A DNA stretch of 14,048 bases. Origin: a virus. Lineage: Duplodnaviria; Heunggongvirae; Uroviricota; Caudoviricetes. The notes beneath the pieces were generated by a model. It saw only the letters and a program-made list of their open reading frames with translations, was not told the origin of the DNA and did no database searches. Below are positions 4,634-14,048 of the stretch, one piece after another (the stretch's first letter is position 1; each line of letters begins with the position of its first letter). Both the position numbers and the translations under genes were made by a program. Location: the IMG/VR virus record IMGVR_UViG_2582580966_000010, one strand, 5' to 3'.

Positions 4634-6577
4634 TTACGGGTTATTCACTTCCACTGCGATACTGTCAATCAGTACCGGGTAAGTCGCATTTTTAGTGATA
4701 TCGGTCACGCGCAACTTGTCTGCCGTAAACGTGCCGACCGGAGACTGCGACAGCATGAATGGTGTCCCGTCCTTACCATCAATGACCGGCGTCACCTCAA
4801 TACTGTTGTTACCGGCAAAACGGAAGCCCAGCGTATGCCATTCGTTATTAAATGCGCCGAATGACCCCAGCTTCGTGTTCTGCGCCGTGTTTCCTTTGTG
4901 ATACATCACGTTAAGGTCTGTGGCATCGCTCTGTACGTAAAACGATGCCAGCAGGTTATGACCGGCATTACCTTCCAGTGTGACGCCCTGAGGAAGCGAA
5001 GAAACCGGCCAGTACAGCGCCAGTGCGTACTGATTAGCCGTAAGCGCGCCATCGAGTTTAAAACGACAACTGACAAGACCACCTTTACCCAGCAGGTCCG
5101 CACCATTACCAGCATCATGCTCAAGGTACCAGGGGGCTCTTCCTGTTTCCTTGGTCAGTTTCATTGCCTTACCCCCGCTGGCTCCGGCATCATCCACGAT
5201 TTGAGCCTTGCCACCTCCGGCAGCCCAACCCTGTGGTGTCAACCGTCCTTCAGACTCAGATGCCCGGTAAGCAAATAGCGTACTCATCGTCGTGGTGTCT
5301 GCGGGTGGCGTGGACGGTTTTGATGGTGTATCAGGTGACGGCTTCTCATCCGGTGGTGTCACGGTCTGCCCGCGCATCAATTCAGCCGTGCGCCCTGCAT
5401 GGAGCATAATAGCTGAGGCCAGACGGTCTGAAATGACGCCCCTGCGTGCCCATGAGCTGAAATGGCTGTCACGCTGTGTCGAAACAAAACTGCCCTGGGT
5501 TCGGGATGCTGCACCGTAATACCCGACAGCCACAATATCCGGGTCTTCCGCCGGAGCATTCGTTGGCGTGCTCTGTCCATTCTCATCCGTCAGGAACGGT
5601 ACAAAGAAAATATTCTGTGCTTCCCTGCCCTTGTAACCGCCATATACCGCCTCATATTTATCGGCGTTAAGATTCTTCCAGTAATACGTGGTGTCACCAC
5701 AAATCCACGGCACCGAGCCAGCACTTCCGCCAACACACTGTGCAGAATATGCAGCCATATCAGCCCTGAACTGCTGCACCATAGTGGTAAACAGGCCGCT
5801 GTGCTGCTGACTGCCGTCCGCAAGATCATTTTCCCCCTGCATCCATACCACGGCCAGAAGCCTGTTTTTCGGGTTCTTCGACAGCGCCGCTTTTGTACGG
5901 AAGAGAAAATCCTGATACAGCGGTTTACCCACTCCCCAGCGGGCTGAATTTGCCGATGCGCCAGACGTTTCGCTGAACGTGCCGTCATTACCCACGGTTA
6001 AACCAGCCCCGCCACGGCAACAGGGCACCAGAAGAATCCCGGCATTCTGCGGGATATAAGGCAGAAGTTTTTTGGCAATATGCAGCCCCTGACCGACAGT
6101 CCCGTACTGGCCCTTACTCAGGTCTGCATGAGGATGGTTAAGTGCGCTCATGTCCTGAACATCATGCAGACAGTGGTCTGCCGGAATAACGTCATTGTAT
6201 GCACAGGTATCACCACCCGGCGTCACAGTGCTGCGACGGGCCAGCTGCTTAATACGGGAGTCAGGGCGATCATAGGTCTCCGGCAGAGGAAGCCCCTCAC
6301 CATAGGCCATACCGTTCGACTGCCCGGCCAGGGGAATAACGTAGTAATACTCCGGTTCAGTGGTAGCCACTCCCGGAGAGCCACCAGCCCCTGTGTCGGG
6401 CACAACCACAGGCGTGGTCACATCACCCTCTGCGGCAATGGCCTGCATCAGTGTATAAGGCGTGATAGCCACAGGACTGCCAAACGGCTGCCAGCCTTCC
6501 TTCAGTTTTTGTGTCAGTCGCTCCGCAAGGTCTGACGGCGACGCCGCCCTGACCACGTCATAGTGTTTAAATGCCAT
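4634..6577 (-). CDS. nanS-p: Prophage-encoded sialate O-acetylesterase (NanS-p-like; DUF1737 N-domain plus SASA/SGNH esterase plus C-terminal lectin-like domain)
   Basis: 647-aa ORF. Start chosen at MAFKHYDVV (ATG 6577) with a strong SD (GGAGGA); the ORF track begins 10 codons upstream. It carries the SASA-family catalytic serine motif GQSN (YYYVIPLAGQSNGMAYGE) and the conserved block VVWMQGENDL. Its position between the tRNA/cargo site and the holin matches the large esterase ORF downstream of stx in Stx phages. Confidence 0.8.
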   Translation of the reverse strand: MAFKHYDVVRAASPSDLAERLTQKLKEGWQPFGSPVAITPYTLMQAIAAEGDVTTPVVVPDTGAGGSPGVATTEPEYYYVIPLAGQSNGMAYGEGLPLPETYDRPDSRIKQLARRSTVTPGGDTCAYNDVIPADHCLHDVQDMSALNHPHADLSKGQYGTVGQGLHIAKKLLPYIPQNAGILLVPCCRGGAGLTVGNDGTFSETSGASANSARWGVGKPLYQDFLFRTKAALSKNPKNRLLAVVWMQGENDLADGSQQHSGLFTTMVQQFRADMAAYSAQCVGGSAGSVPWICGDTTYYWKNLNADKYEAVYGGYKGREAQNIFFVPFLTDENGQSTPTNAPAEDPDIVAVGYYGAASRTQGSFVSTQRDSHFSSWARRGVISDRLASAIMLHAGRTAELMRGQTVTPPDEKPSPDTPSKPSTPPADTTTMSTLFAYRASESEGRLTPQGWAAGGGKAQIVDDAGASGGKAMKLTKETGRAPWYLEHDAGNGADLLGKGGLVSCRFKLDGALTANQYALALYWPVSSLPQGVTLEGNAGHNLLASFYVQSDATDLNVMYHKGNTAQNTKLGSFGAFNNEWHTLGFRFAGNNSIEVTPVIDGKDGTPFMLSQSPVGTFTADKLRVTDITKNATYPVLIDSIAVEVNNP

Positions 6578-6660
6578 TATTCCTCCCCTTTCCGGGATTT
6601 TCCTCAACAGTTGCGGGCCACGGTCCGGCTACACGGAGAATCAAAAGAGGAGAACCGCAG

Positions 6661-6696
6661 CCCGCAAAACGAAAAAGGCCGCGCAGTTGCGCAGCC
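6661..6696 (-). terminator. Intrinsic terminator (minus strand) upstream of nanS-p
   Basis: Minus-strand RNA forms GGCUGCGC-aacu-GCGCGGCC (8 bp including one G-U pair), followed by UUUUUCGUUUU. Confidence 0.45.
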
Positions 6697-6760
6697 TTAT
6701 CACAGATGGTAAAAATCAGAACACGATAATAAAAATACCTGATGTATATTCATGCGCCCC

Positions 6761-6788
6761 GCCCGCCACTCACTGCGGGCTTTTTTTT
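6761..6788 (+). terminator. Intrinsic terminator (plus-strand orientation)
   Basis: GCCCGC-cactcact-GCGGGC followed by T8 on the plus strand. Confidence 0.5.
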
Positions 6789-6796
6789 GCCCATAG

Positions 6797-6823
6797 AAAA
6801 GCCCCTCCGGAGAGGGGCTTTTT
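6797..6823. terminator. Bidirectional intrinsic terminator downstream of the TerB operon
   Basis: AAAA-GCCCCTC-cgga-GAGGGGC-TTTTT: a perfect 7-bp GC stem with an A-run and a T-run on either side. Confidence 0.55.
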
Positions 6824-7063
6824 ACAGTGGTAGTGTAGACAATTTTGCATGGTGCCGGGTGCCTCCCGGTGAGTTCAGTATCAGCACCTGAACCCGCACA
6901 GAAAGGATAAGGGTCGGTGACAAAACACCAGTTGCTGATTGCCCCTCCGCACAGGGGGATTCACCATGCCAGTTTCTTTTAACAAACTCCCCGCAAACCA
7001 GACAACAGTCAACCGCCTGAATTGTGAGGTATTTAAAAATTTCAACGGGTAACTGATACCCTG

Positions 7064-7225
7064 CTAATCGCCTGATGCTTTCTTTTTCAGCAACGGGAAA
7101 GCAACAACCACCACACCCGCCACCAGCACACCGTCAGCCAGCACTGACATTATCCGGCTGCTGAAGTCCACCATCACCACCATCACTACCAGAAACAGCA
7201 GGAGCGCAACCACAGCCAGACGCAT
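7064..7225 (-). CDS. Hypothetical 53-aa hydrophobic microprotein (predicted two TM segments), coupled to the TerB-like gene
   Basis: Translated by hand from the reverse complement: MRLAVVALLLFLVVMVVMVDFSSRIMSVLADGVLVAGVVVVAFPLLKKKASGD. The ATG at 7225 lies 8 nt after the TerB stop. It falls below the 60-aa cutoff of the ORF track. Confidence 0.4.
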   Translation of the reverse strand: MRLAVVALLLFLVVMVVMVDFSSRIMSVLADGVLVAGVVVVAFPLLKKKASGD

Positions 7226-7233
7226 TTTTACCG

Positions 7234-7665
7234 TCACAGATGATTCTCCAGACGAAGGCCCAGAACACCGGCAATCTCTTCCAGCACCTTGCGCTCTTCC
7301 GGCTCTATTTCGCCGTCTGCTTCGGCAATGGCCACCGCCACATCCAGCACGTCTTCCGCTTCACGCGTATCGTGTTTCACATCCTCGATCTCACGTAACG
7401 CCGCTCGACGACCAATTTTAAAGTTCGTATCCAGCTGACCGATAATGGTTGCGCTAATCGCATTAATTTCTGACGTAAACGCGGACAACGCAGGCTGGTT
7501 ACGCAAGACCTGCTCGATCTTCGCTTTCTCTGAAGCCTCACATTCACCATCTGCATAGGCCACCAGATAGGCAGCATTAATAACCGCCTGTGCCAGATCA
7601 CGTTTCTCAAACTTTTTAATTTCCACTGCCGCTCGGCGGGCTTTTTTACCAAAAATACCAAACAT
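7234..7665 (-). CDS. TerB-family (tellurite-resistance TerB-like) protein
   Basis: 143-aa ORF from MFGIFGKK (ATG 7665, SD AAAGGA). Two TerB-type repeats (AAYLVAYADGECEASEKAKIEQVL and DVAVAIAEADGEIEPEERKVLEEIAGVLGL) match the helical motif of TerB proteins. Confidence 0.7.
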   Translation of the reverse strand: MFGIFGKKARRAAVEIKKFEKRDLAQAVINAAYLVAYADGECEASEKAKIEQVLRNQPALSAFTSEINAISATIIGQLDTNFKIGRRAALREIEDVKHDTREAEDVLDVAVAIAEADGEIEPEERKVLEEIAGVLGLRLENHL

Positions 7666-7835
7666 CGTGACGTTCCTTTGGGTGGGTGAGCCAACGCCCG
7701 GGAGCGATCTGCCCACAGAGAAAGTCACACTGACCACTCCGTAAGCTCACCCCCGAAAGGCTCTGTGGTTGATATGCGCCGGGCGTGGCGCGGATACAAA
7801 AAAGGCCCGCAAAAGCGAGCCGGGAAAAATAAGTC

Positions 7836-7912
7836 TGGCGCGTTGTACTGGATTCGAACCAGTGACCGATTGCTTAGAAGGCAATTGCTCTGTCCGGCTG
7901 AGCTAACAACGC
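7836..7912 (-). tRNA. tRNA-Arg (anticodon UCU)
   Basis: Hand-folded cloverleaf: acceptor GCGTTGT/ACAACGC, D-arm GCTC...GAGC, anticodon stem ATTGC/GCAAT with loop CTTCTAA, T-arm CTGG-TTCGAAT-CCAG, then discriminator and an encoded CCA. Confidence 0.8.
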
Positions 7913-7928
7913 AGGATACAGATAATGA

Positions 7929-8002
7929 ACCGCCTTCGGGGATCCGAACTCCGCGCAACCAGCTTCGAAGGCTGGCGCTCTTTCCTGATGAGCTAATGGC
8001 GG
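7929..8002 (-). tRNA. tRNA-like gene, Arg (anticodon UCG), imperfect and without encoded CCA; possibly degenerate
   Basis: Cloverleaf with anticodon stem CCAGC/GCTGG and loop CTTCGAA. The acceptor stem has one A-A mismatch and the T-stem one A-C mismatch. The 3' end is followed by TCA rather than CCA. Confidence 0.5.
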
Positions 8003-8009
8003 TATGTGA

Positions 8010-8085
8010 TGGTGGCCCTTGCTGGATTTGAACCAGCGACCTGGCGATTATGAGTCGCTCGCTCTCACCACTGAGCTAAAGGGCC
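8010..8085 (-). tRNA. tRNA-Ile2 (anticodon CAU, ileX/ileZ-like; a Met assignment cannot be excluded from sequence alone)
   Basis: Sequence GGCCCTTTAGCTCAGTGGTGAGAGCGAGCGACTCATAATCGCCAGGTCGCTGGTTCAAATCCAGCAAGGGCCACCA. The anticodon stem-loop matches E. coli ileX-type tRNA as remembered. Perfect acceptor stem and an encoded CCA. Confidence 0.8.
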
Positions 8086-8113
8086 GAGCCAAAAAATAAT
8101 AATCAGATGAAAA

Positions 8114-8827
8114 TCAATAATCAAGCCCTTGCCTGGATACATATCTGTCTGGCGGGAAGCCATAATAGCGGTGAAATACAGAAATAAAGTAGGACCTGCT
8201 TGAATAACCGCATTTTTCTGCTATAGCCTGTCCATATCCATGCCGGGAACATAACATATTTACAGCAACACGCATCCGCTCTTCCAGCAACAAGCGACTG
8301 AACATGCCCCCTTCATTTTTCAGTTTTGTCTTTAACAAACTCTCACTCATATGCAACTGTAGAGCAATCGCACAAAGCGTCCAGCTTGCTGATATATCTG
8401 TCTGAATTATCGCCCTGACTTTGGCACTTATGCTGGATAAACATCCACTTAAAAACAATGACATCCGTTCATCTGTTTCAAACAGAGACAGGCAGGCCAT
8501 CATAAGAAACATATCCGTGGCCTCTCCGGAAAATCCCTGGCTGGTAATTAAAGCCGCAGCCAACGCAGGATTGTTGGGTTCCAGCAACAGGTAAAGCGGA
8601 ATGTCAGTCAGACGAGTCCTCGTCAGCTTATGCTGACTTTCCAGATATTGACTTACGACGGATTCGCTTATATCGACAATTTTAACTTTGCCATAATGCA
8701 TAAGGAAAAGCTCCCTGATGCATTTGGTGGCCAGAACAACTGAGCCTGGCTTAAGTGACAACGTATCCTTTTCAAGAAAAATATTAATTGGGGAGCAAAC
8801 CATGATAACTGAACAGACAACAGCCAT
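8114..8827 (-). CDS. AraC-family transcriptional regulator (AppY-like, no sugar-binding domain)
   Basis: 237-aa, AT-rich ORF. The C-terminal dual HTH region (WTLCAIALQLHMSESLLKTKLKNEGGMFSRLLLEERMRVAVNMLCSRHGYGQAIAEKCGYSSRSYFISVFHRYYGFPP) is typical of the AraC family, and the N-terminus MAVVCSVIMVCS resembles AppY. Confidence 0.75.
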   Translation of the reverse strand: MAVVCSVIMVCSPINIFLEKDTLSLKPGSVVLATKCIRELFLMHYGKVKIVDISESVVSQYLESQHKLTRTRLTDIPLYLLLEPNNPALAAALITSQGFSGEATDMFLMMACLSLFETDERMSLFLSGCLSSISAKVRAIIQTDISASWTLCAIALQLHMSESLLKTKLKNEGGMFSRLLLEERMRVAVNMLCSRHGYGQAIAEKCGYSSRSYFISVFHRYYGFPPDRYVSRQGLDY

Positions 8828-11985: not shown

Positions 11986-12012
11986 AAAAAACAAAACCCG
12001 CCGAAGCGGGTT
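11986..12012 (-). terminator. Intrinsic terminator of the hok transcript
   Basis: Minus-strand RNA: AACCCGC-uucg-GCGGGUU followed by UUGUUUUUU, about 70 nt downstream of the hok stop. Confidence 0.6.
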
Positions 12013-12080
12013 AAGTGCGGGTGCGTTGAGGATGCCTGACACATCAGAGGTGGCGAGGGATTTCTCCCCCGCCAGGTCTC

Positions 12081-12236
12081 TTACTCCTCAGGTTCGTAAG
12101 CTGTGAAGACAGCGACCTCCGTCTGGCCGGTTCGGATTCGTACCTCGCAGAGGTCTTTCCTCGTTACCAGTGCCGTCACAATGACGGTTAAACAGATGAC
12201 GATCAGGGCGATTAGCATCGCCTTTTGCTGCTTCAT
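12081..12236 (-). CDS. hok: Hok-family type I toxin (identical in sequence to HokD/RelF as remembered)
   Basis: Hand translation gives MKQQKAMLIALIVICLTVIVTALVTRKDLCEVRIRTGQTEVAVFTAYEPEE (51 aa): one TM helix plus a periplasmic tail with conserved Cys. Confidence 0.9.
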   Translation of the reverse strand: MKQQKAMLIALIVICLTVIVTALVTRKDLCEVRIRTGQTEVAVFTAYEPEE

Positions 12237-12293
12237 AGCCTGCTTCTCCTTGCCTTTCGGCACGTAAGAGGCTAACCTACGTGTGTAGAGCAT
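12081..12293 (-). CDS. mok: mok-like overlapping reading frame (same frame as hok, upstream start)
   Basis: In-frame upstream extension MLYTRRLASYVPKGKEKQA running into hok, as in hok/mok/sok loci where mok translation is needed for hok translation. Confidence 0.55.
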   Translation of the reverse strand: MLYTRRLASYVPKGKEKQAMKQQKAMLIALIVICLTVIVTALVTRKDLCEVRIRTGQTEVAVFTAYEPEE

Positions 12294-12447
12294 AGATATG
12301 GCCTCAGATTAATGTTAAGCGTCTTGCCGGACGCGTAATGTTAACTGGGGCTTTTCTCTATCTGCCTTTTGGTGTTCATGCCTGAGACAGATAGCCTCAA
12401 GCACCCGCTGCAATTCTACTTAACTCTCCTTTTCCCGCAAACCGTTT

Positions 12448-12531
12448 TTATCCCCAGCGGCAAATCGAATACACCACCAGCGCCACCGCCATCGCAATTC
12501 CTACCGTTGTTAATGCTTCAGGCCAGGTCAT
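12448..12531 (-). CDS. Candidate 27-aa hydrophobic peptide (MTWPEALTTVGIAMAVALVVYSICRWG)
   Basis: ATG at 12531 preceded by GGAGGA at 9-nt spacing. Single predicted TM helix. Below the ORF-track cutoff; found by hand translation. Confidence 0.3.
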   Translation of the reverse strand: MTWPEALTTVGIAMAVALVVYSICRWG

Positions 12532-12626
12532 CGTAAAATATCCTCCACGCTTATCAGTCCGTTCCGCTCCAGATAACTCATCGCCTTATCCGGTAATTTG
12601 CAGTCTGGCTTCGCTTTCCTCAGTTG

Positions 12627-12872
12627 CTAGGTTAACTGCTTTACCAGCATGGTTAACTCATCGACCAGACGCTGATATCCCACTGGTTTGTATTCATGCA
12701 ATTTACCGGCTGGCTCTGCTGCCAGCGATACCAGTGCGATTTCCAGAACAGCAATATCCATCTTATATGTGCGGATGATGTCATGGTCGATTGTGCCCGG
12801 TATGCACAGTCTCTGTGCTTCAATAGTCTCCTCTGCGTGAGCTATTAACTGCTCTCTGGTAAAAGTCGTCAT
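12627..12872 (-). CDS. Hypothetical 81-aa protein, paralog of the upstream 55-aa gene
   Basis: ATG overlaps the stop of the upstream gene (ATGA). SD GAAGGGG inside the upstream gene. Shares the N-terminus MTTxTxE and the motif IALxSLxAEP with the 55-aa protein. Confidence 0.5.
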
Positions 12873-13036
12873 GCCGTAGCCCCTTCTTGATATTTTTCAA
12901 ACCAGAACACAACCGGCTCTGCTTCCAGCGATGCCAGCGCAATCCGTGCCAGTTCCATTTGTTCACCACGGGTAAGCCCGTTTTCAAGCGGGTTTTTAAT
13001 GAACAATTCAATACGTTCTTTGGTAATAGTGGTCAT
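12869..13036 (-). CDS. Hypothetical 55-aa protein ([55 protein letters not shown])
   Basis: Hand translation. ATG at 13036 with a strong SD (AAGGAG). Stop overlaps the next start (ATGA). Below the ORF-track cutoff. Confidence 0.45.
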
Positions 13037-13046
13037 GTGTTACTCC

Positions 13047-13310
13047 TTAACCCGCAGTGCTTTCAACTGATGAGGGGAACAAAATCTTTTCATCAAACCC
13101 TGCATTCATATCATGAACAGCAACACACCAATCCATCGACGAACGATTATCAAGAGCCTCCATGATTTCATCCATGCGACGTAGGTCATACAGGTAAATG
13201 CTTTTATCGCCAATGGTGTAAAAGCCAATTTTTTTCGGTGATGGACAGCGATCAAGAACTTCCTGTAATTCGTTCAACCATGCCCGTTCTTTTTTTGTCA
13301 AAGTTGCCAT
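13047..13310 (-). CDS. Hypothetical 87-aa protein
   Basis: Start chosen at MATLTKKERAWLNELQ (ATG 13310) with SD AAGGA; the upstream ORF-track extension is low-complexity. The stop lies 10 nt before the next gene. Confidence 0.5.
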   Translation of the reverse strand: MATLTKKERAWLNELQEVLDRCPSPKKIGFYTIGDKSIYLYDLRRMDEIMEALDNRSSMDWCVAVHDMNAGFDEKILFPSSVESTAG

Positions 13311-13311
13311 A

Positions 13312-13530
13312 TCAGTTTTCCTTATACGGATTAATTTTATTGTGCAGTGTGTTGAACGACGCCCATACAACGTCGGTATACAATTCAGTAACTGGCTCAA
13401 TTATTTTCCCGATTGCCCAGACAAAAATTAGAGGGGATATCGGTATCATCAATACGATAAACAGAATGAGAAACAAAAATTCTGTCGCTCTACTTTTTTG
13501 CGGATATTCTTTTCTGAATAATGTAGTCAT
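13312..13530 (-). CDS. Hypothetical 72-aa membrane protein
   Basis: AT-rich. Hydrophobic core FLFLILFIVLMIPISPLIFVWAIG. Its stop is 1 nt from the next start. Confidence 0.5.
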   Translation of the reverse strand: MTTLFRKEYPQKSRATEFLFLILFIVLMIPISPLIFVWAIGKIIEPVTELYTDVVWASFNTLHNKINPYKEN

Positions 13531-13562
13531 TTCTTACCGCCCTTTCGGGCGGCCTCCCGACA

Positions 13563-13775
13563 TTAATCGTTGTGGTAACTCATGGCTTCATTTGCAGCAT
13601 CAACCGGATCAACCTCCCACCAGCAATAATTTGGTGCGTTTCCTTCAGGTGTCCACGGTTCTAATTCATTTTTTGCCACATTCTCGTCGCCAGTAATTTT
13701 AAAAATCTGTTCAGAGAATTTTTTCACCCACTCGTTATATTTTTCAGTGTTAATAATTTTCTGTGTATTTGACAT
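13563..13775 (-). CDS. Hypothetical 70-aa acidic, Trp-rich protein; first gene after the IS1 end
   Basis: ATG at 13775 with a strong SD (GGAGG). AT-rich. No motif I recognise (…EPWTPEGNAPNYCWWEVDPVDAANEAM…). Confidence 0.5.
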   Translation of the reverse strand: MSNTQKIINTEKYNEWVKKFSEQIFKITGDENVAKNELEPWTPEGNAPNYCWWEVDPVDAANEAMSYHND

Positions 13776-13840
13776 AGATATACCTCCAGTTAAGGATTAA
13801 ATTTTATTTACAGTGCTGAACTTAATTATTCAGATTTGGA

Positions 13841-14048
13841 GGTAATGACTCCAACTTATTGATAGTGTTTTATGTTCAGATAATGCCCGATGACTTTGTC
13901 ATGCAGCTCCACCGATTTTGAGAACGACAGCGACTTCCGTCCCAGCCGTGCCAGGTGCTGCCTCAGATTCAGGTTATGCCGCTCAATTCGCTGCGTATAT
14001 CGCTTGCTGATTACGTGCAGCTTTCCCTTCAGGCGGGATTCATACAGC
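13841..14048 (-). mobile_element. IS1 insertion sequence, right-end portion (IRR at 13841-13863), continuing beyond the window
   Basis: The reverse complement of 13841-14048 matches the IS1 right end as remembered, ending ...CACTATCAATAAGTTGGAGTCATTACC, including the terminal inverted repeat GGTAATGACTCCAACTTATTGAT. Confidence 0.85.
13856..14048 (-). CDS. insB: IS1 transposase InsB, C-terminal part (5' end outside the window)
   Basis: The reading frame ends ...[21 protein letters not shown] with a stop at 13856-13858, matching the InsB C-terminus; the ORF runs off the window edge. Confidence 0.75.

Follow-up and report, generated by a model that had tools for sequence, protein, structure and literature searches.

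Two small genes beside an IS1 end

Near the right-hand end of the window, by which we mean the whole stretch of tailed-phage DNA that was analysed (14,048 nt), two small open reading frames (ORFs) encode proteins of 70 and 72 amino acids (Table 1). Both ORFs were confirmed, on the minus strand and at the coordinates given in an earlier note on this DNA, and the character that the note ascribed to their products was confirmed as well. The 70-aa protein is acidic and rich in tryptophan (pI 4.47; 13 D/E versus 6 K/R; 4 Trp), and the 72-aa protein is a single-TM protein with one hydrophobic stretch at approximately residues 17-44 (Kyte-Doolittle peak 2.96), preceded by a basic N-terminus. Purifying selection acts on both ORFs, with a median dN/dS of 0.18 for the 70-aa ORF (21 alleles) and 0.22 for the 72-aa ORF (34 alleles).

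Table 1. Features at the right-hand end of the window.
Feature	Position	Strand	Description
IS1 right end	13838-14048	minus	runs inward from terminal inverted repeat GGTAATGACTCCAACTTATTGATAG; element cut short by the end of the window
AT-rich intergenic remnant	13776-13837	minus	25.8% GC; box AATCCTTAACTGGAGG at 13783-13798
70-aa ORF	13563-13775	minus	acidic, Trp-rich soluble protein; PHROG 4659; no Pfam family
SD-like GGGAG	13554-13558	minus	directly 5' of hairpin; AGGAG or GGGAG in most other copies; putative SD
Hairpin GCCGCCC-GAAA-GGGCGGU	13536-13553	minus	7-bp stem (six G-C and a closing G.U); GNRA tetraloop
A-rich spacer AAGAA	13531-13535	minus	from hairpin to DUF4014 start codon; no usable SD
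72-aa ORF	13312-13530	minus	DUF4014 family single-pass membrane protein; PHROG 1832; basic N-terminus; tail ...LHNKINPY
87-aa acidic protein gene	13047-13310	minus	PHROG 1714; same operon, begins 1 nt past DUF4014 stop; included for context

In thousands of E. coli records, features that match positions 13838-14048 carry the annotation 'IS1-like element IS1A family transposase', and the IS1 transposase genes point in the same direction as both ORFs. Sequence and orientation of this IS1 end are identical to those of the IS1 copies that lie beside the 70-aa gene in loci L253, L254 and L259, where the IS1 products match the IS1 transposase Pfam families. The pair had been described as abutting the element; the IS1 end is present, but since its terminal repeat begins at 13838, a gap of 62 nt separates it from the 70-aa gene. 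The insertion point lies inside a conserved intergenic region, whose remnant is collinear with intact prophages such as those of ATCC 25922 and L252; in these, some 43 nt separate the insertion point from the end of the DUF977 gene. Within box AATCCTTAACTGGAGG of the remnant, the motif GGAGG (13783-13787) stands 7 nt ahead of the ATG of the 70-aa gene. The exact IS1 junction was found in no complete E. coli genome. An intact phage would transcribe both genes as part of its delayed-early rightward operon, from which the IS1 element, located 62 nt upstream, would sever them here.

Two catalogued protein families

Both genes are already catalogued lambdoid accessory genes, one encoding a DUF4014 protein and the other a protein present in the PHROG collection only. 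The 72-aa protein matched Pfam DUF4014 (PF13198) with E = 3.7e-26 and 91.8 bits, above the gathering cut-off of 23.2 bits and over the entire model (residues 1-72 on model positions 1-72 of 72), and PHROG 1832 with E = 2.1e-45. It has the family's architecture of about 72 residues with one hydrophobic helix and a conserved C-terminal motif, and resembles PF13198 members in its basic N-terminus, Pro-kinked hydrophobic helix and LHNKINPY tail. The AF2 model is one kinked helix (residues 14-28 plus 32-66; pLDDT 82). Homologs include L0067 of phage 933W (approximately 92% identity), gp46 of epsilon15 (51%) and gp39 of ES18, in addition to proteins of epsilon34, HK225 and MG40. In alignments of the 933W, epsilon15 and MG40 proteins with database members, G41, E45, E49, Y51, W56 and L62-H63-N64-K65-x-N67-P68 are invariant. 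From its charge distribution, the protein probably adopts an N-in/C-out topology, and the conserved tail may bind a host envelope protein.

Such a protein could on its own be an envelope-directed factor, acting in superinfection exclusion or inhibiting a membrane enzyme such as an O-antigen acetyltransferase. Its single-pass topology with a strongly conserved extramembrane tail fits this reading, some database records label homologs 'acetyltransferase inhibitor', and small phage proteins of 40-90 aa that alter the O-antigen, the Gnarl proteins, have been described (PMC12373910). However, the label could be traced to no experiment, and the GenBank record of epsilon15 calls its homolog hypothetical; five peptide strings taken from the two ORFs were all absent from the Gnarl supplements (PMC12373910), and the literature searched held no mention of DUF4014. 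Moreover, the DUF4014 gene sits in early operons of the lytic cycle and appears not to be a prophage-expressed moron with its own promoter. We thus regard an envelope-directed role as distinctly unlikely. Searches by individual names gave only unrelated papers for 'L0067' among the matches listed, no match for the homolog gp27 in the epsilon34 genome paper, and no source in the literature searched for the PHROG label phrase 'released from the phage upon host infection'.

The 70-aa protein matched PHROG 4659 over its full length (E = 4.8e-51; residues 1-70 on profile positions 1-70 of 70). It had no match in Pfam, NCBIfam or PADLOC, and a profile search of PDB sequences returned nothing below E = 0.6. 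The PHROG 4659 family is narrow, consisting of Escherichia and Shigella proteins and two distant relatives; the distant relatives P0242 and P0243 match the profile too. A phmmer search over 1.84 billion representatives gave eight matches, two of them full-length distant relatives with the common motif DPVDAANEA(M/L)SY; three others, very large repetitive proteins, were taken as spurious. The AF2 model has three helices, with a pLDDT of 76 that only one of five models reached, and a Foldseek search with it against PDB and BFVD found nothing at E < 1. A 58-aa acidic, Trp-rich protein that occupies the same slot in other phages was rejected as a relative because of an hhalign probability of 0.3%. 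Gp16 of phage ArgO145, a PHROG 4659 member, is 90% identical to the 70-aa protein, and its gene is followed by a DUF7167 gene where DUF4014 stands in the window. The small 70-aa product probably works in the cytoplasm by binding a factor of the host or the phage.

A hairpin in a shared intergenic junction

The hairpin with a GAAA loop that the earlier note had reported near the second start codon is real, although it lies about 2-3 nt away from the position given there (13538-13556). Its 6-bp G-C core occupies 13537-13552, and the DUF4014 start codon follows 5 nt past the 7-bp stem, or 6 nt past the core. Allowing three mismatches, the window contains one match to the hairpin versus 0.02 expected, and the hairpin in its 40-nt context folds at -18.8 kcal/mol (z = -3.6). 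Conservation of the hairpin was borne out: among 80 loci selected solely for the 70-aa gene, 78 carry an intact copy. In the other two a degraded form (-8 kcal/mol) precedes another gene, so the hairpin is dispensable there. The SD-like box before the hairpin is conserved in nearly all contexts, with GGGAUG in its place in six of the 80 loci.

Among the variants of the hairpin (23 sequences), 92.5% of cells are paired. Stem variants mostly have U in place of C, which preserves pairing (as G.U) only on the sense RNA, and a loop variant changes GAAA to GGCA, which is still GNRA. Covariation in the 23 variants equalled the shuffle mean, and conservation of the structure is therefore without statistical support. 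No hairpin family was found by an Rfam search of 12000-14048 up to E = 10, the sole significant match being sok. Two known kinds of element were considered for the hairpin. An intrinsic terminator was ruled out because the hairpin has no U-tract behind it: the sense strand continues with UAAGAAAUGAC and the opposite strand with CCUCCCGAC. Nor was the hairpin among the calls of the terminator scan. A boxB/nut site was rejected on loop size and position. The boxB of lambda has a 5-bp stem and a five-base loop and lies just downstream of pL/pR, beside boxA. The present hairpin shares with it a short GC stem, a purine-rich GNRA-type loop and a place in an early phage transcript, but has a four-base loop and a 7-bp stem and is located past the replication genes. 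The early region of hairpin-bearing prophages encodes YdaS/YdaT-type proteins.

The hairpin is one part of a conserved intergenic junction of the form 'AATCCTTAAC(C/T)GGAGG ... (A/G)GGAG + GCCGCCC-GAAA-GGGCGGU + 5-10 nt + start codon'. The exact 18-mer of the hairpin occurs in at least 120 contigs of IMG/VR, for the most part at sites that do not follow the 70-aa gene, and the junction stands ahead of at least seven apparently unrelated first genes, often in the absence of either ORF; the hairpin-to-start spacer measures 5-10 nt for 64 of 66 distinct first genes. In 151 instances box AATCCTTAACTGGAGG heads a gene-free form of the junction, which aligns with the flanks of the 70-aa ORF and has a 23-nt spacer exactly at the site of this ORF. 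DUF4014 genes of the 933W/epsilon15 type are placed differently, being found behind an Ead/Ea22-like gene of the leftward exo-xis/ea region and lacking an upstream hairpin, whereas the gene in the window lies past the replication genes in the rightward operon. Because the element precedes at least seven apparently unrelated genes and is missing from the DUF4014 genes of 933W and epsilon15, these comparisons indicate that the hairpin does not belong specifically to the DUF4014 gene but is part of a reusable junction.

A candidate split ribosome-binding site

Upstream of the DUF4014 gene, the SD GGGAG ends 23 nt before the AUG, and there is no other strong SD. This layout, i.e. a distant SD, a stable intervening hairpin and a spacer (AAGAA) without a usable SD, is that of a split ribosome-binding site, and it is likewise found before most other genes that follow the junction. 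Folding of the 18-nt hairpin would cut the distance between SD and AUG from 23 to approximately 5 nt, so that on the RNA the hairpin would probably serve as the bridge in a split ribosome-binding site. Two such sites have been shown experimentally in phage T4, by mutation and structure probing: in gene 38 folding shortens the distance from 22 to 5 nt, and in gene 25 the SD lies 27 nt from the AUG (PMC3014915). By analogy with these genes, with which it shares a strong SD at too great a distance, a hairpin in the gap and a remaining distance of about 5 nt on folding, the junction may act as a split ribosome-binding site. In contrast to T4, where each case concerns one gene, the junction is common to many downstream genes.

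The hairpin might instead be mainly an element of RNA 3' ends or stability, a processing or pause site shielding the message upstream of it, or a leaky terminator, with no part in translating the next gene. A very stable GC stem with a GNRA loop could plausibly act as a barrier to 3'-5' exonucleases, the hairpin marks the boundary between replication and accessory genes in many prophages, and the sense-strand bias of the wobble-preserving changes fits a role at the RNA level. For a leaky terminator at the entry to an accessory region, tR2 at the start of the lambda nin region offers an analogy. However, the hairpin lacks a following U-tract (GGGCGGUAAGAAAUG) and was not called by the terminator scan, and an element of this kind needs neither a constant SD directly 5' of it nor a start codon 5-10 nt 3' of it before unrelated genes. 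We consider this explanation rather unlikely. A role of the hairpin in translation or in message stability is possible, as a property of the junction rather than of the pair.

Probable recombination at the junction

Sequences that carry the junction diverge right after GGGCGGUA in at least five classes of downstream genes, and right before the SD in two classes of upstream genes. Several prophages contain two copies of the junction around a block of approximately 1.06-1.26 kb. Phage ArgO145 has two copies about 1.1 kb apart, one with the 70-aa gene and the second preceding DUF4014 with an identical UAAGAAAUG joint. At the DNA level, the conserved junction would probably be a homology patch for swapping neighbouring genes. 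The 70-aa ORF appears to be an optional insertion into the junction, which would take the junction's first GGAGG as its ribosome-binding site, and the present adjacency of the two genes probably arose by recombination between two junction copies such as those of ArgO145.

These same observations, the sharp points of divergence and the paired copies, would also be expected if the junction mattered as DNA alone, a patch of homology used by phage recombinases, and the RNA hairpin were incidental; homology-driven mosaicism in lambdoid phages is documented (PMC2327257, PMC3945230). A homology patch, however, has no need of a perfect palindrome, a GNRA loop or a fixed distance to the start codon, and the hairpin variants favour pairing on the sense strand, though not in a statistically secure way. 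A purely DNA-level role thus seems unlikely to us, and we prefer a junction that would work on both RNA and DNA.

The slot behind the junction also bears on base composition. The pair is AT-rich as claimed, with 38.8% GC for 13312-13775 versus 49.6% for the whole window; a GC content this low is found in 0.6% of 464-nt segments, every one of which overlaps the same right-hand end (13058-13836). Low GC is not a mark of the pair itself, however, but typical of the slot: in related phages the 600 nt past the junction average 0.43 GC versus 0.50 in the replication genes upstream, whichever gene fills the slot.

Genomic context of the two genes

In intact prophages the order of genes is replication genes (HTH_36, IstB/DnaC-like, DUF1627, DUF977), 70-aa gene, DUF4014, small ORFs, hok, DUF968, RusA and Q. 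Homologs in Rac/Qin-like prophages lie between the replication genes and the hok/DUF968/RusA/Q block, and others are placed in the exo-xis/ea region of 933W, ArgO145, epsilon15 and P22-like phages. Over E. coli prophages and phages, the neighbours are replication genes, DUF977, Ead/Ea22-like, DUF7167, HNH, hok, DUF968 and RusA. None of the contexts read had an adjacent CDI, Rhs, bacteriocin or other toxin gene; the hok/sok locus, roughly 1 kb off with sok at 12231-12406 (Rfam), is a self-contained type I system. Neither protein matched a PADLOC defence model at E <= 1.

The two genes differ in abundance. Among 5426 complete E. coli genomes, DUF4014 was found at 1704 places in 1003 genomes and the 70-aa gene at 548 places in 445, so that DUF4014 copies are approximately three times as numerous and usually occur without the 70-aa gene. 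Phage records containing them numbered 127 and 8, respectively, and in none of the 8 are the two adjacent, as seen directly for ArgO145 and from separate gene matches for the others. In the 80 IMG/VR loci with the 70-aa gene, DUF4014 was adjacent in 47, whereas in the other 33 it lay 1.1 kb away (6 loci) or was absent within 4 kb (27 loci). The PHROG 1714 gene lies downstream of DUF4014 in 45 of the 47 loci with adjacent genes, and is found alone in other phages. Within the complete E. coli genomes, the majority of 70-aa genes adjoin a DUF4014 gene. Coverage of the pair reaches 80% or more in approximately 485 E. coli records, with nucleotide identities as low as 89%, which either the shared ancestry of one widespread prophage block or selection for adjacency would explain.

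The earlier note had likened the pair to an immunity or exclusion module. A functional pair, for instance a soluble factor and a membrane protein in immunity or superinfection exclusion, would account for the fact that, in E. coli chromosomes, the 70-aa gene is most often found next to DUF4014, and for the adjacency in more than half of the IMG/VR loci. This frequent adjacency in E. coli genomes leaves a functional link some standing, and in temperate phages small membrane proteins frequently act in exclusion. Against such a link, the far commoner DUF4014 gene does without the 70-aa gene in 933W, epsilon15, epsilon34, ES18 and P22-like phages, the 70-aa gene does without a nearby DUF4014 gene in the 27 loci above and is never next to one in phage records, neither a toxin neighbour nor a defence match was found, and recombination between repeated copies of the junction accounts for the adjacency. 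We therefore judge a functional pair very improbable. The suggestion of an immunity or exclusion module did not hold up, the homologs being ordinary lambdoid early-region genes of the composition typical of their slot, separable and without a toxin partner in the contexts read. The idea of separate acquisition fared better: the genes are mosaic and separately mobile, and each is found elsewhere without the other.

It is likely that the two genes, unrelated to each other, are accessory genes of a lambdoid prophage of Rac/Qin type that recombination at a common junction brought together, rather than a dedicated module. They would take the first places in the variable, AT-rich accessory region downstream of the replication genes. 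They resemble the ORFs of the lambda nin and exo-xis regions and lambdoid morons in being small, AT-rich, dispensable-looking and of unassigned function, and in lying between essential early modules, found in some close relatives but not in others, with their limits at gene borders. Strictly defined, a moron brings its own promoter and terminator and is active in the prophage state, whereas a consensus scan around 13312-13837 called neither for the present ORFs, though weak promoters in the AT-rich upstream region could escape such a scan.

Implications for lambdoid phages

The pair is very probably no hidden immunity or toxin-related module. Both families, although uncharacterised, are very frequent in Stx phages and in the prophages of E. 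coli and Shigella; among 5,426 complete E. coli genomes, those with related copies number from several hundred to roughly one thousand. We tentatively propose, as a possibility that we hold to be less than even, that 'SD + GNRA hairpin + short A-rich spacer + start codon' forms a portable plug-in site in lambdoid phages of the Rac/Qin-like kind and in some Stx phages, which on the RNA would be a split ribosome-binding site giving incoming genes a ready translation start, and on the DNA a homology patch. Separately, and as tentatively, either small protein could be a host-directed factor, e.g. an anti-defence or envelope-targeting one. If true, the plug-in site would carry the mechanism of T4 genes 25 and 38 into temperate phages and would tie gene expression to the shuffling of modules. 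The SD-hairpin junction is thus a simple, testable candidate for how accessory genes of lambdoid phages are expressed and exchanged.

Two small genes of catalogued families in a nin-like slot

Every gene at the window's right end lies on the minus strand. The earlier note had described here an AT-rich pair encoding an acidic, Trp-rich 70-aa protein and a 72-aa membrane protein, and ORF reading, pI, hydropathy and GC content confirmed this. The 70-aa protein is acidic (pI 4.47; 13 D/E versus 6 K/R; four Trp), and in the 72-aa protein a basic N-terminus precedes a single long hydrophobic stretch (approximately residues 17-44); the AlphaFold model of the latter protein is a single Pro-kinked helix continuing into a further helix (pLDDT 82). 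Median dN/dS across natural alleles was 0.18 for the 70-aa ORF and 0.22 for the 72-aa ORF; this purifying selection indicates that both are real genes. GC content is 38.8% at 13312-13775 compared with 49.6% for the whole window, and only 0.6% of same-size windows, all within this right-hand end, are equally low.

Coordinates of features in the window and in ArgO145
Feature	Position	Strand	Basis or remark
70-aa ORF (PHROG 4659)	13563-13775	minus	ORF reading
Hairpin GCCGCCC-GAAA-GGGCGGU	13536-13553	minus	sequence reading
72-aa ORF (DUF4014)	13312-13530	minus	ORF reading; 32-nt gap after 70-aa ORF
87-aa ORF	13047-13310	minus	ORF reading; starts 1 nt past 72-aa stop codon
hok/sok type I toxin-antitoxin locus, complete	12081-12406	minus	Rfam and ORF
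sok	12231-12406	minus	Rfam match, 117 bits
Hok/Gef-family ORF, includes mok-like upstream extension	12081-12293	minus	ORF
AraC-family regulator	8114-8827		
TerB-domain protein	7234-7737		
657-aa DUF1737-SASA esterase-DUF6645 protein	4634-6607		
ArgO145 junction copies	L261 2526-2612 and 3597-3870		

Both genes belong to families that are already catalogued. The 72-aa protein matches Pfam DUF4014 over its full length (91.8 bits, cut-off 23.2) and is also a member of PHROG 1832. Its homologs, which include 933W L0067, epsilon15 gp46 and genes in epsilon34, g341c, ES18, HK225 and P22-like MG40, share the N-terminus, the hydrophobic helix and a C-terminal LHNKINPY motif. The sole family match of the 70-aa protein was PHROG 4659, with no match in Pfam, NCBIfam or PADLOC. 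The range of this family is narrow: nearly all database homologs come from Escherichia/Shigella at >80% identity, and exhaustive searching across 1.84 billion representatives contributed just two distant full-length relatives, both carrying a C-terminal DPVDAANEA(M/L)SY motif. The predicted three-helix structure was of moderate and unstable confidence, and no structural neighbour was found for it. Weak multi-stretch phmmer matches of the 70-aa protein (E = 1e-6 to 1e-7) to three database proteins of 2565-3770 aa (P0244, P0245 and P0246) were taken to be repeat or composition artefacts.

A literature search found no experimental work on either family. Product names in circulation for DUF4014 ('released from the phage upon host infection', 'sugar acetyltransferase inhibitor', 'O-polysaccharide acetyltransferase inhibitor') could none of them be traced to an experiment, and the original epsilon15 record labels its homolog hypothetical.

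The order in intact prophages, as seen in E. coli ATCC 25922, runs from YdaS/YdaT-type early genes through an HTH replication initiator, a DnaC-like ATPase, DUF1627 and DUF977 to the 70-aa gene, after which come DUF4014, the 87-aa gene, more small ORFs, hok, DUF968, RusA and Q. The window matches the downstream series (hok/sok, DUF968, RusA, Q, then lysis genes), and the slot is the equivalent of the lambda nin region position. Cargo-like genes stand between Q and the lysis genes (4634-8827). The 55-aa and 81-aa ORFs at 12627-13036 have an N-terminal pattern in common, MTT.T.E..., as well as a later (A/V)SL(E/A)AEP motif that reappears in the Ead/Ea22-like N-terminal types found behind the junction in other loci; they match the same PHROGs (60, 660, 3323, 5117), covering the N-terminal part of larger phage proteins, and could be related to genes of this kind as short or truncated forms.

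The pair had been said to abut an IS1 end. The IS1 end does lie upstream, at a distance of 62 nt from the 70-aa start: the terminal repeat starts at 13838, and the junction reads ...GGAGTCATTACC followed by TCCAAATCTG (13837/13838). This junction was found in no complete E. coli genome. The insertion point falls in a conserved AT-rich intergenic region, approximately 43 nt beyond the point where DUF977 stops in intact prophages. Three other genomes (L253, L254 and L259, at ~5955) carry an independent insertion in the same orientation, 20 nt nearer the 70-aa gene; in these the pair is also rearranged, DUF4014 abutting ompW. Two independent insertions, in different lineages, 20 nt apart in one AT-rich region suggest a local IS1 target hot spot. 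The transposase genes read toward the pair. IS1 insertions have polarity, and from this general property we infer that both genes are uncoupled from the early rightward promoter.

The two genes are probably independent of each other

Complete E. coli genomes contain DUF4014 at 1704 places (1003 genomes) and the 70-aa gene at 548 places (445 genomes); among isolated phages the corresponding numbers are 127 and 8 records, and in none of these 8 was the 70-aa gene seen to adjoin DUF4014. DUF4014 has another position in 933W, epsilon15 and P22-like phages, where it follows an Ead/Ea22-like gene within the leftward exo-xis/ea region. We sought DUF4014 within 4 kb in 80 viral contigs retrieved by way of the 70-aa gene: it was adjacent in 47, 1.1 kb downstream in 6 and absent in 27. 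In phage ArgO145 three genes separate the two. On E. coli chromosomes, by contrast, the 70-aa gene most often does adjoin DUF4014: approximately 485 records match 80% or more of the pair, with identities as low as 89%. Shared descent of one successful prophage block and selection for adjacency are both compatible with this. A record assigned to Actinobacillus pleuropneumoniae phage vB_Apl-pPE4 (PP818812.1) has, unexpectedly for that host, the junction of E. coli type together with the DUF4014 region, the nucleotide identity being 90-97%.

A functional link between the two proteins is unlikely. The immunity or exclusion module that had been proposed found no support: no toxin gene (CDI, Rhs, bacteriocin or other) adjoined either gene in any context read, and the homologs proved to be ordinary lambdoid early-region genes, an outcome that the earlier note had itself named as refuting the idea. 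Mean GC was 0.43 in the 600 nt past the shared hairpin junction described below, whichever gene was present, versus 0.50 in the preceding replication genes. Low GC is therefore typical of the slot, and separate acquisition applies only in the general sense of mosaic accessory genes.

A hairpin junction shared by apparently unrelated genes

On the minus strand the 32-nt gap contains GGGAG, the hairpin and AAGAA, and the AUG follows. The hairpin is present as the earlier note had claimed, with coordinates corrected by 2-3 nt, and its fold is very stable, at -18.8 kcal/mol with 40 nt of context (z = -3.6). No Rfam family matched it. An intrinsic terminator was rejected, as no U-tract follows the stem, and a nut boxB was rejected on loop size and position.

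The hairpin was intact in 78 of the 80 loci and degraded in two, and directly past GGGCGGUA these loci continue into one of five downstream genes. At least 120 viral contigs contain the exact 18-mer, and most of them have a gene-free leader, AATCCTTAACCGGAGGGATTTCTGCACCCTCAGAACATCAGGAG, in front of it rather than the 70-aa gene. The window has the opening part of this leader, AATCCTTAAC(C/T)GGAGG, ahead of the ATG of the 70-aa gene; this ORF, together with 7 nt on its 5' side and 4 nt on its 3' side, therefore takes the place of a 23-nt spacer that separates two SD-like boxes. Gene-free copies of the junction also have another inverted repeat, GAGGG-N9-CCCUC (L084 3326-3344 and equivalent positions in other copies), which is weaker than the GNRA hairpin and lies immediately before it; in the window the 70-aa ORF stands in its place. 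Across the fetched loci at least seven apparently unrelated first genes follow the junction, including DUF7167, several DUF4014 alleles, two Ead/Ea22-like N-terminal types, two other families and a 43-aa membrane peptide. The stem lies 5-10 nt from the start codon in 64 of 66 distinct first proteins, and first genes of the 10-nt class have an additional GGAG of their own. The hairpin is absent upstream of DUF4014 in 933W and epsilon15. It is, then, a real, generic junction element.

The junction occurs twice per prophage in L095, L116, L150, L158 and ArgO145, with copies approximately 1.06-1.26 kb apart around an accessory-gene block. One ArgO145 copy holds the 70-aa gene and leads to DUF7167; the other is gene-free and joins DUF4014 through UAAGAAAUG, identical to the joint in the window. 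If such copies recombined, the enclosed block would be lost or exchanged, and exactly the 70-aa/DUF4014 arrangement of the window would result. Alternatively, the junction may be purely a DNA homology patch; PMC2327257 and PMC3945230 document lambdoid mosaicism driven by homology.

At the RNA level, the most likely role of the hairpin would be to bridge a distant SD. The sole strong SD of DUF4014 (GGGAG) ends 23 nt before the AUG, and the spacer after the hairpin contains no usable SD; folding of the 18-nt hairpin leaves 5 nt, and may thus bring the SD close to the AUG. T4 genes 38 (22 to 5 nt) and 25 (27 to 11 nt) likewise have a distant SD and an intervening structure that shortens the gap to the start codon, and there the structure was shown experimentally to enhance initiation (PMC3014915). 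Among 23 hairpin variants 92.5% of cells were paired. Stem changes were mostly C-to-U, which on the sense strand, and only there, preserves pairing as G.U; the single recurrent loop change, GAAA to GGCA, is still GNRA; one stem pair showed a double change, and covariation did not exceed a shuffle control. This natural variation is compatible with SD bridging, though not decisive, and the hairpin may instead act as an RNA stability element, as had also been proposed. The SD-hairpin junction is the only part of the region that might repay experiment.
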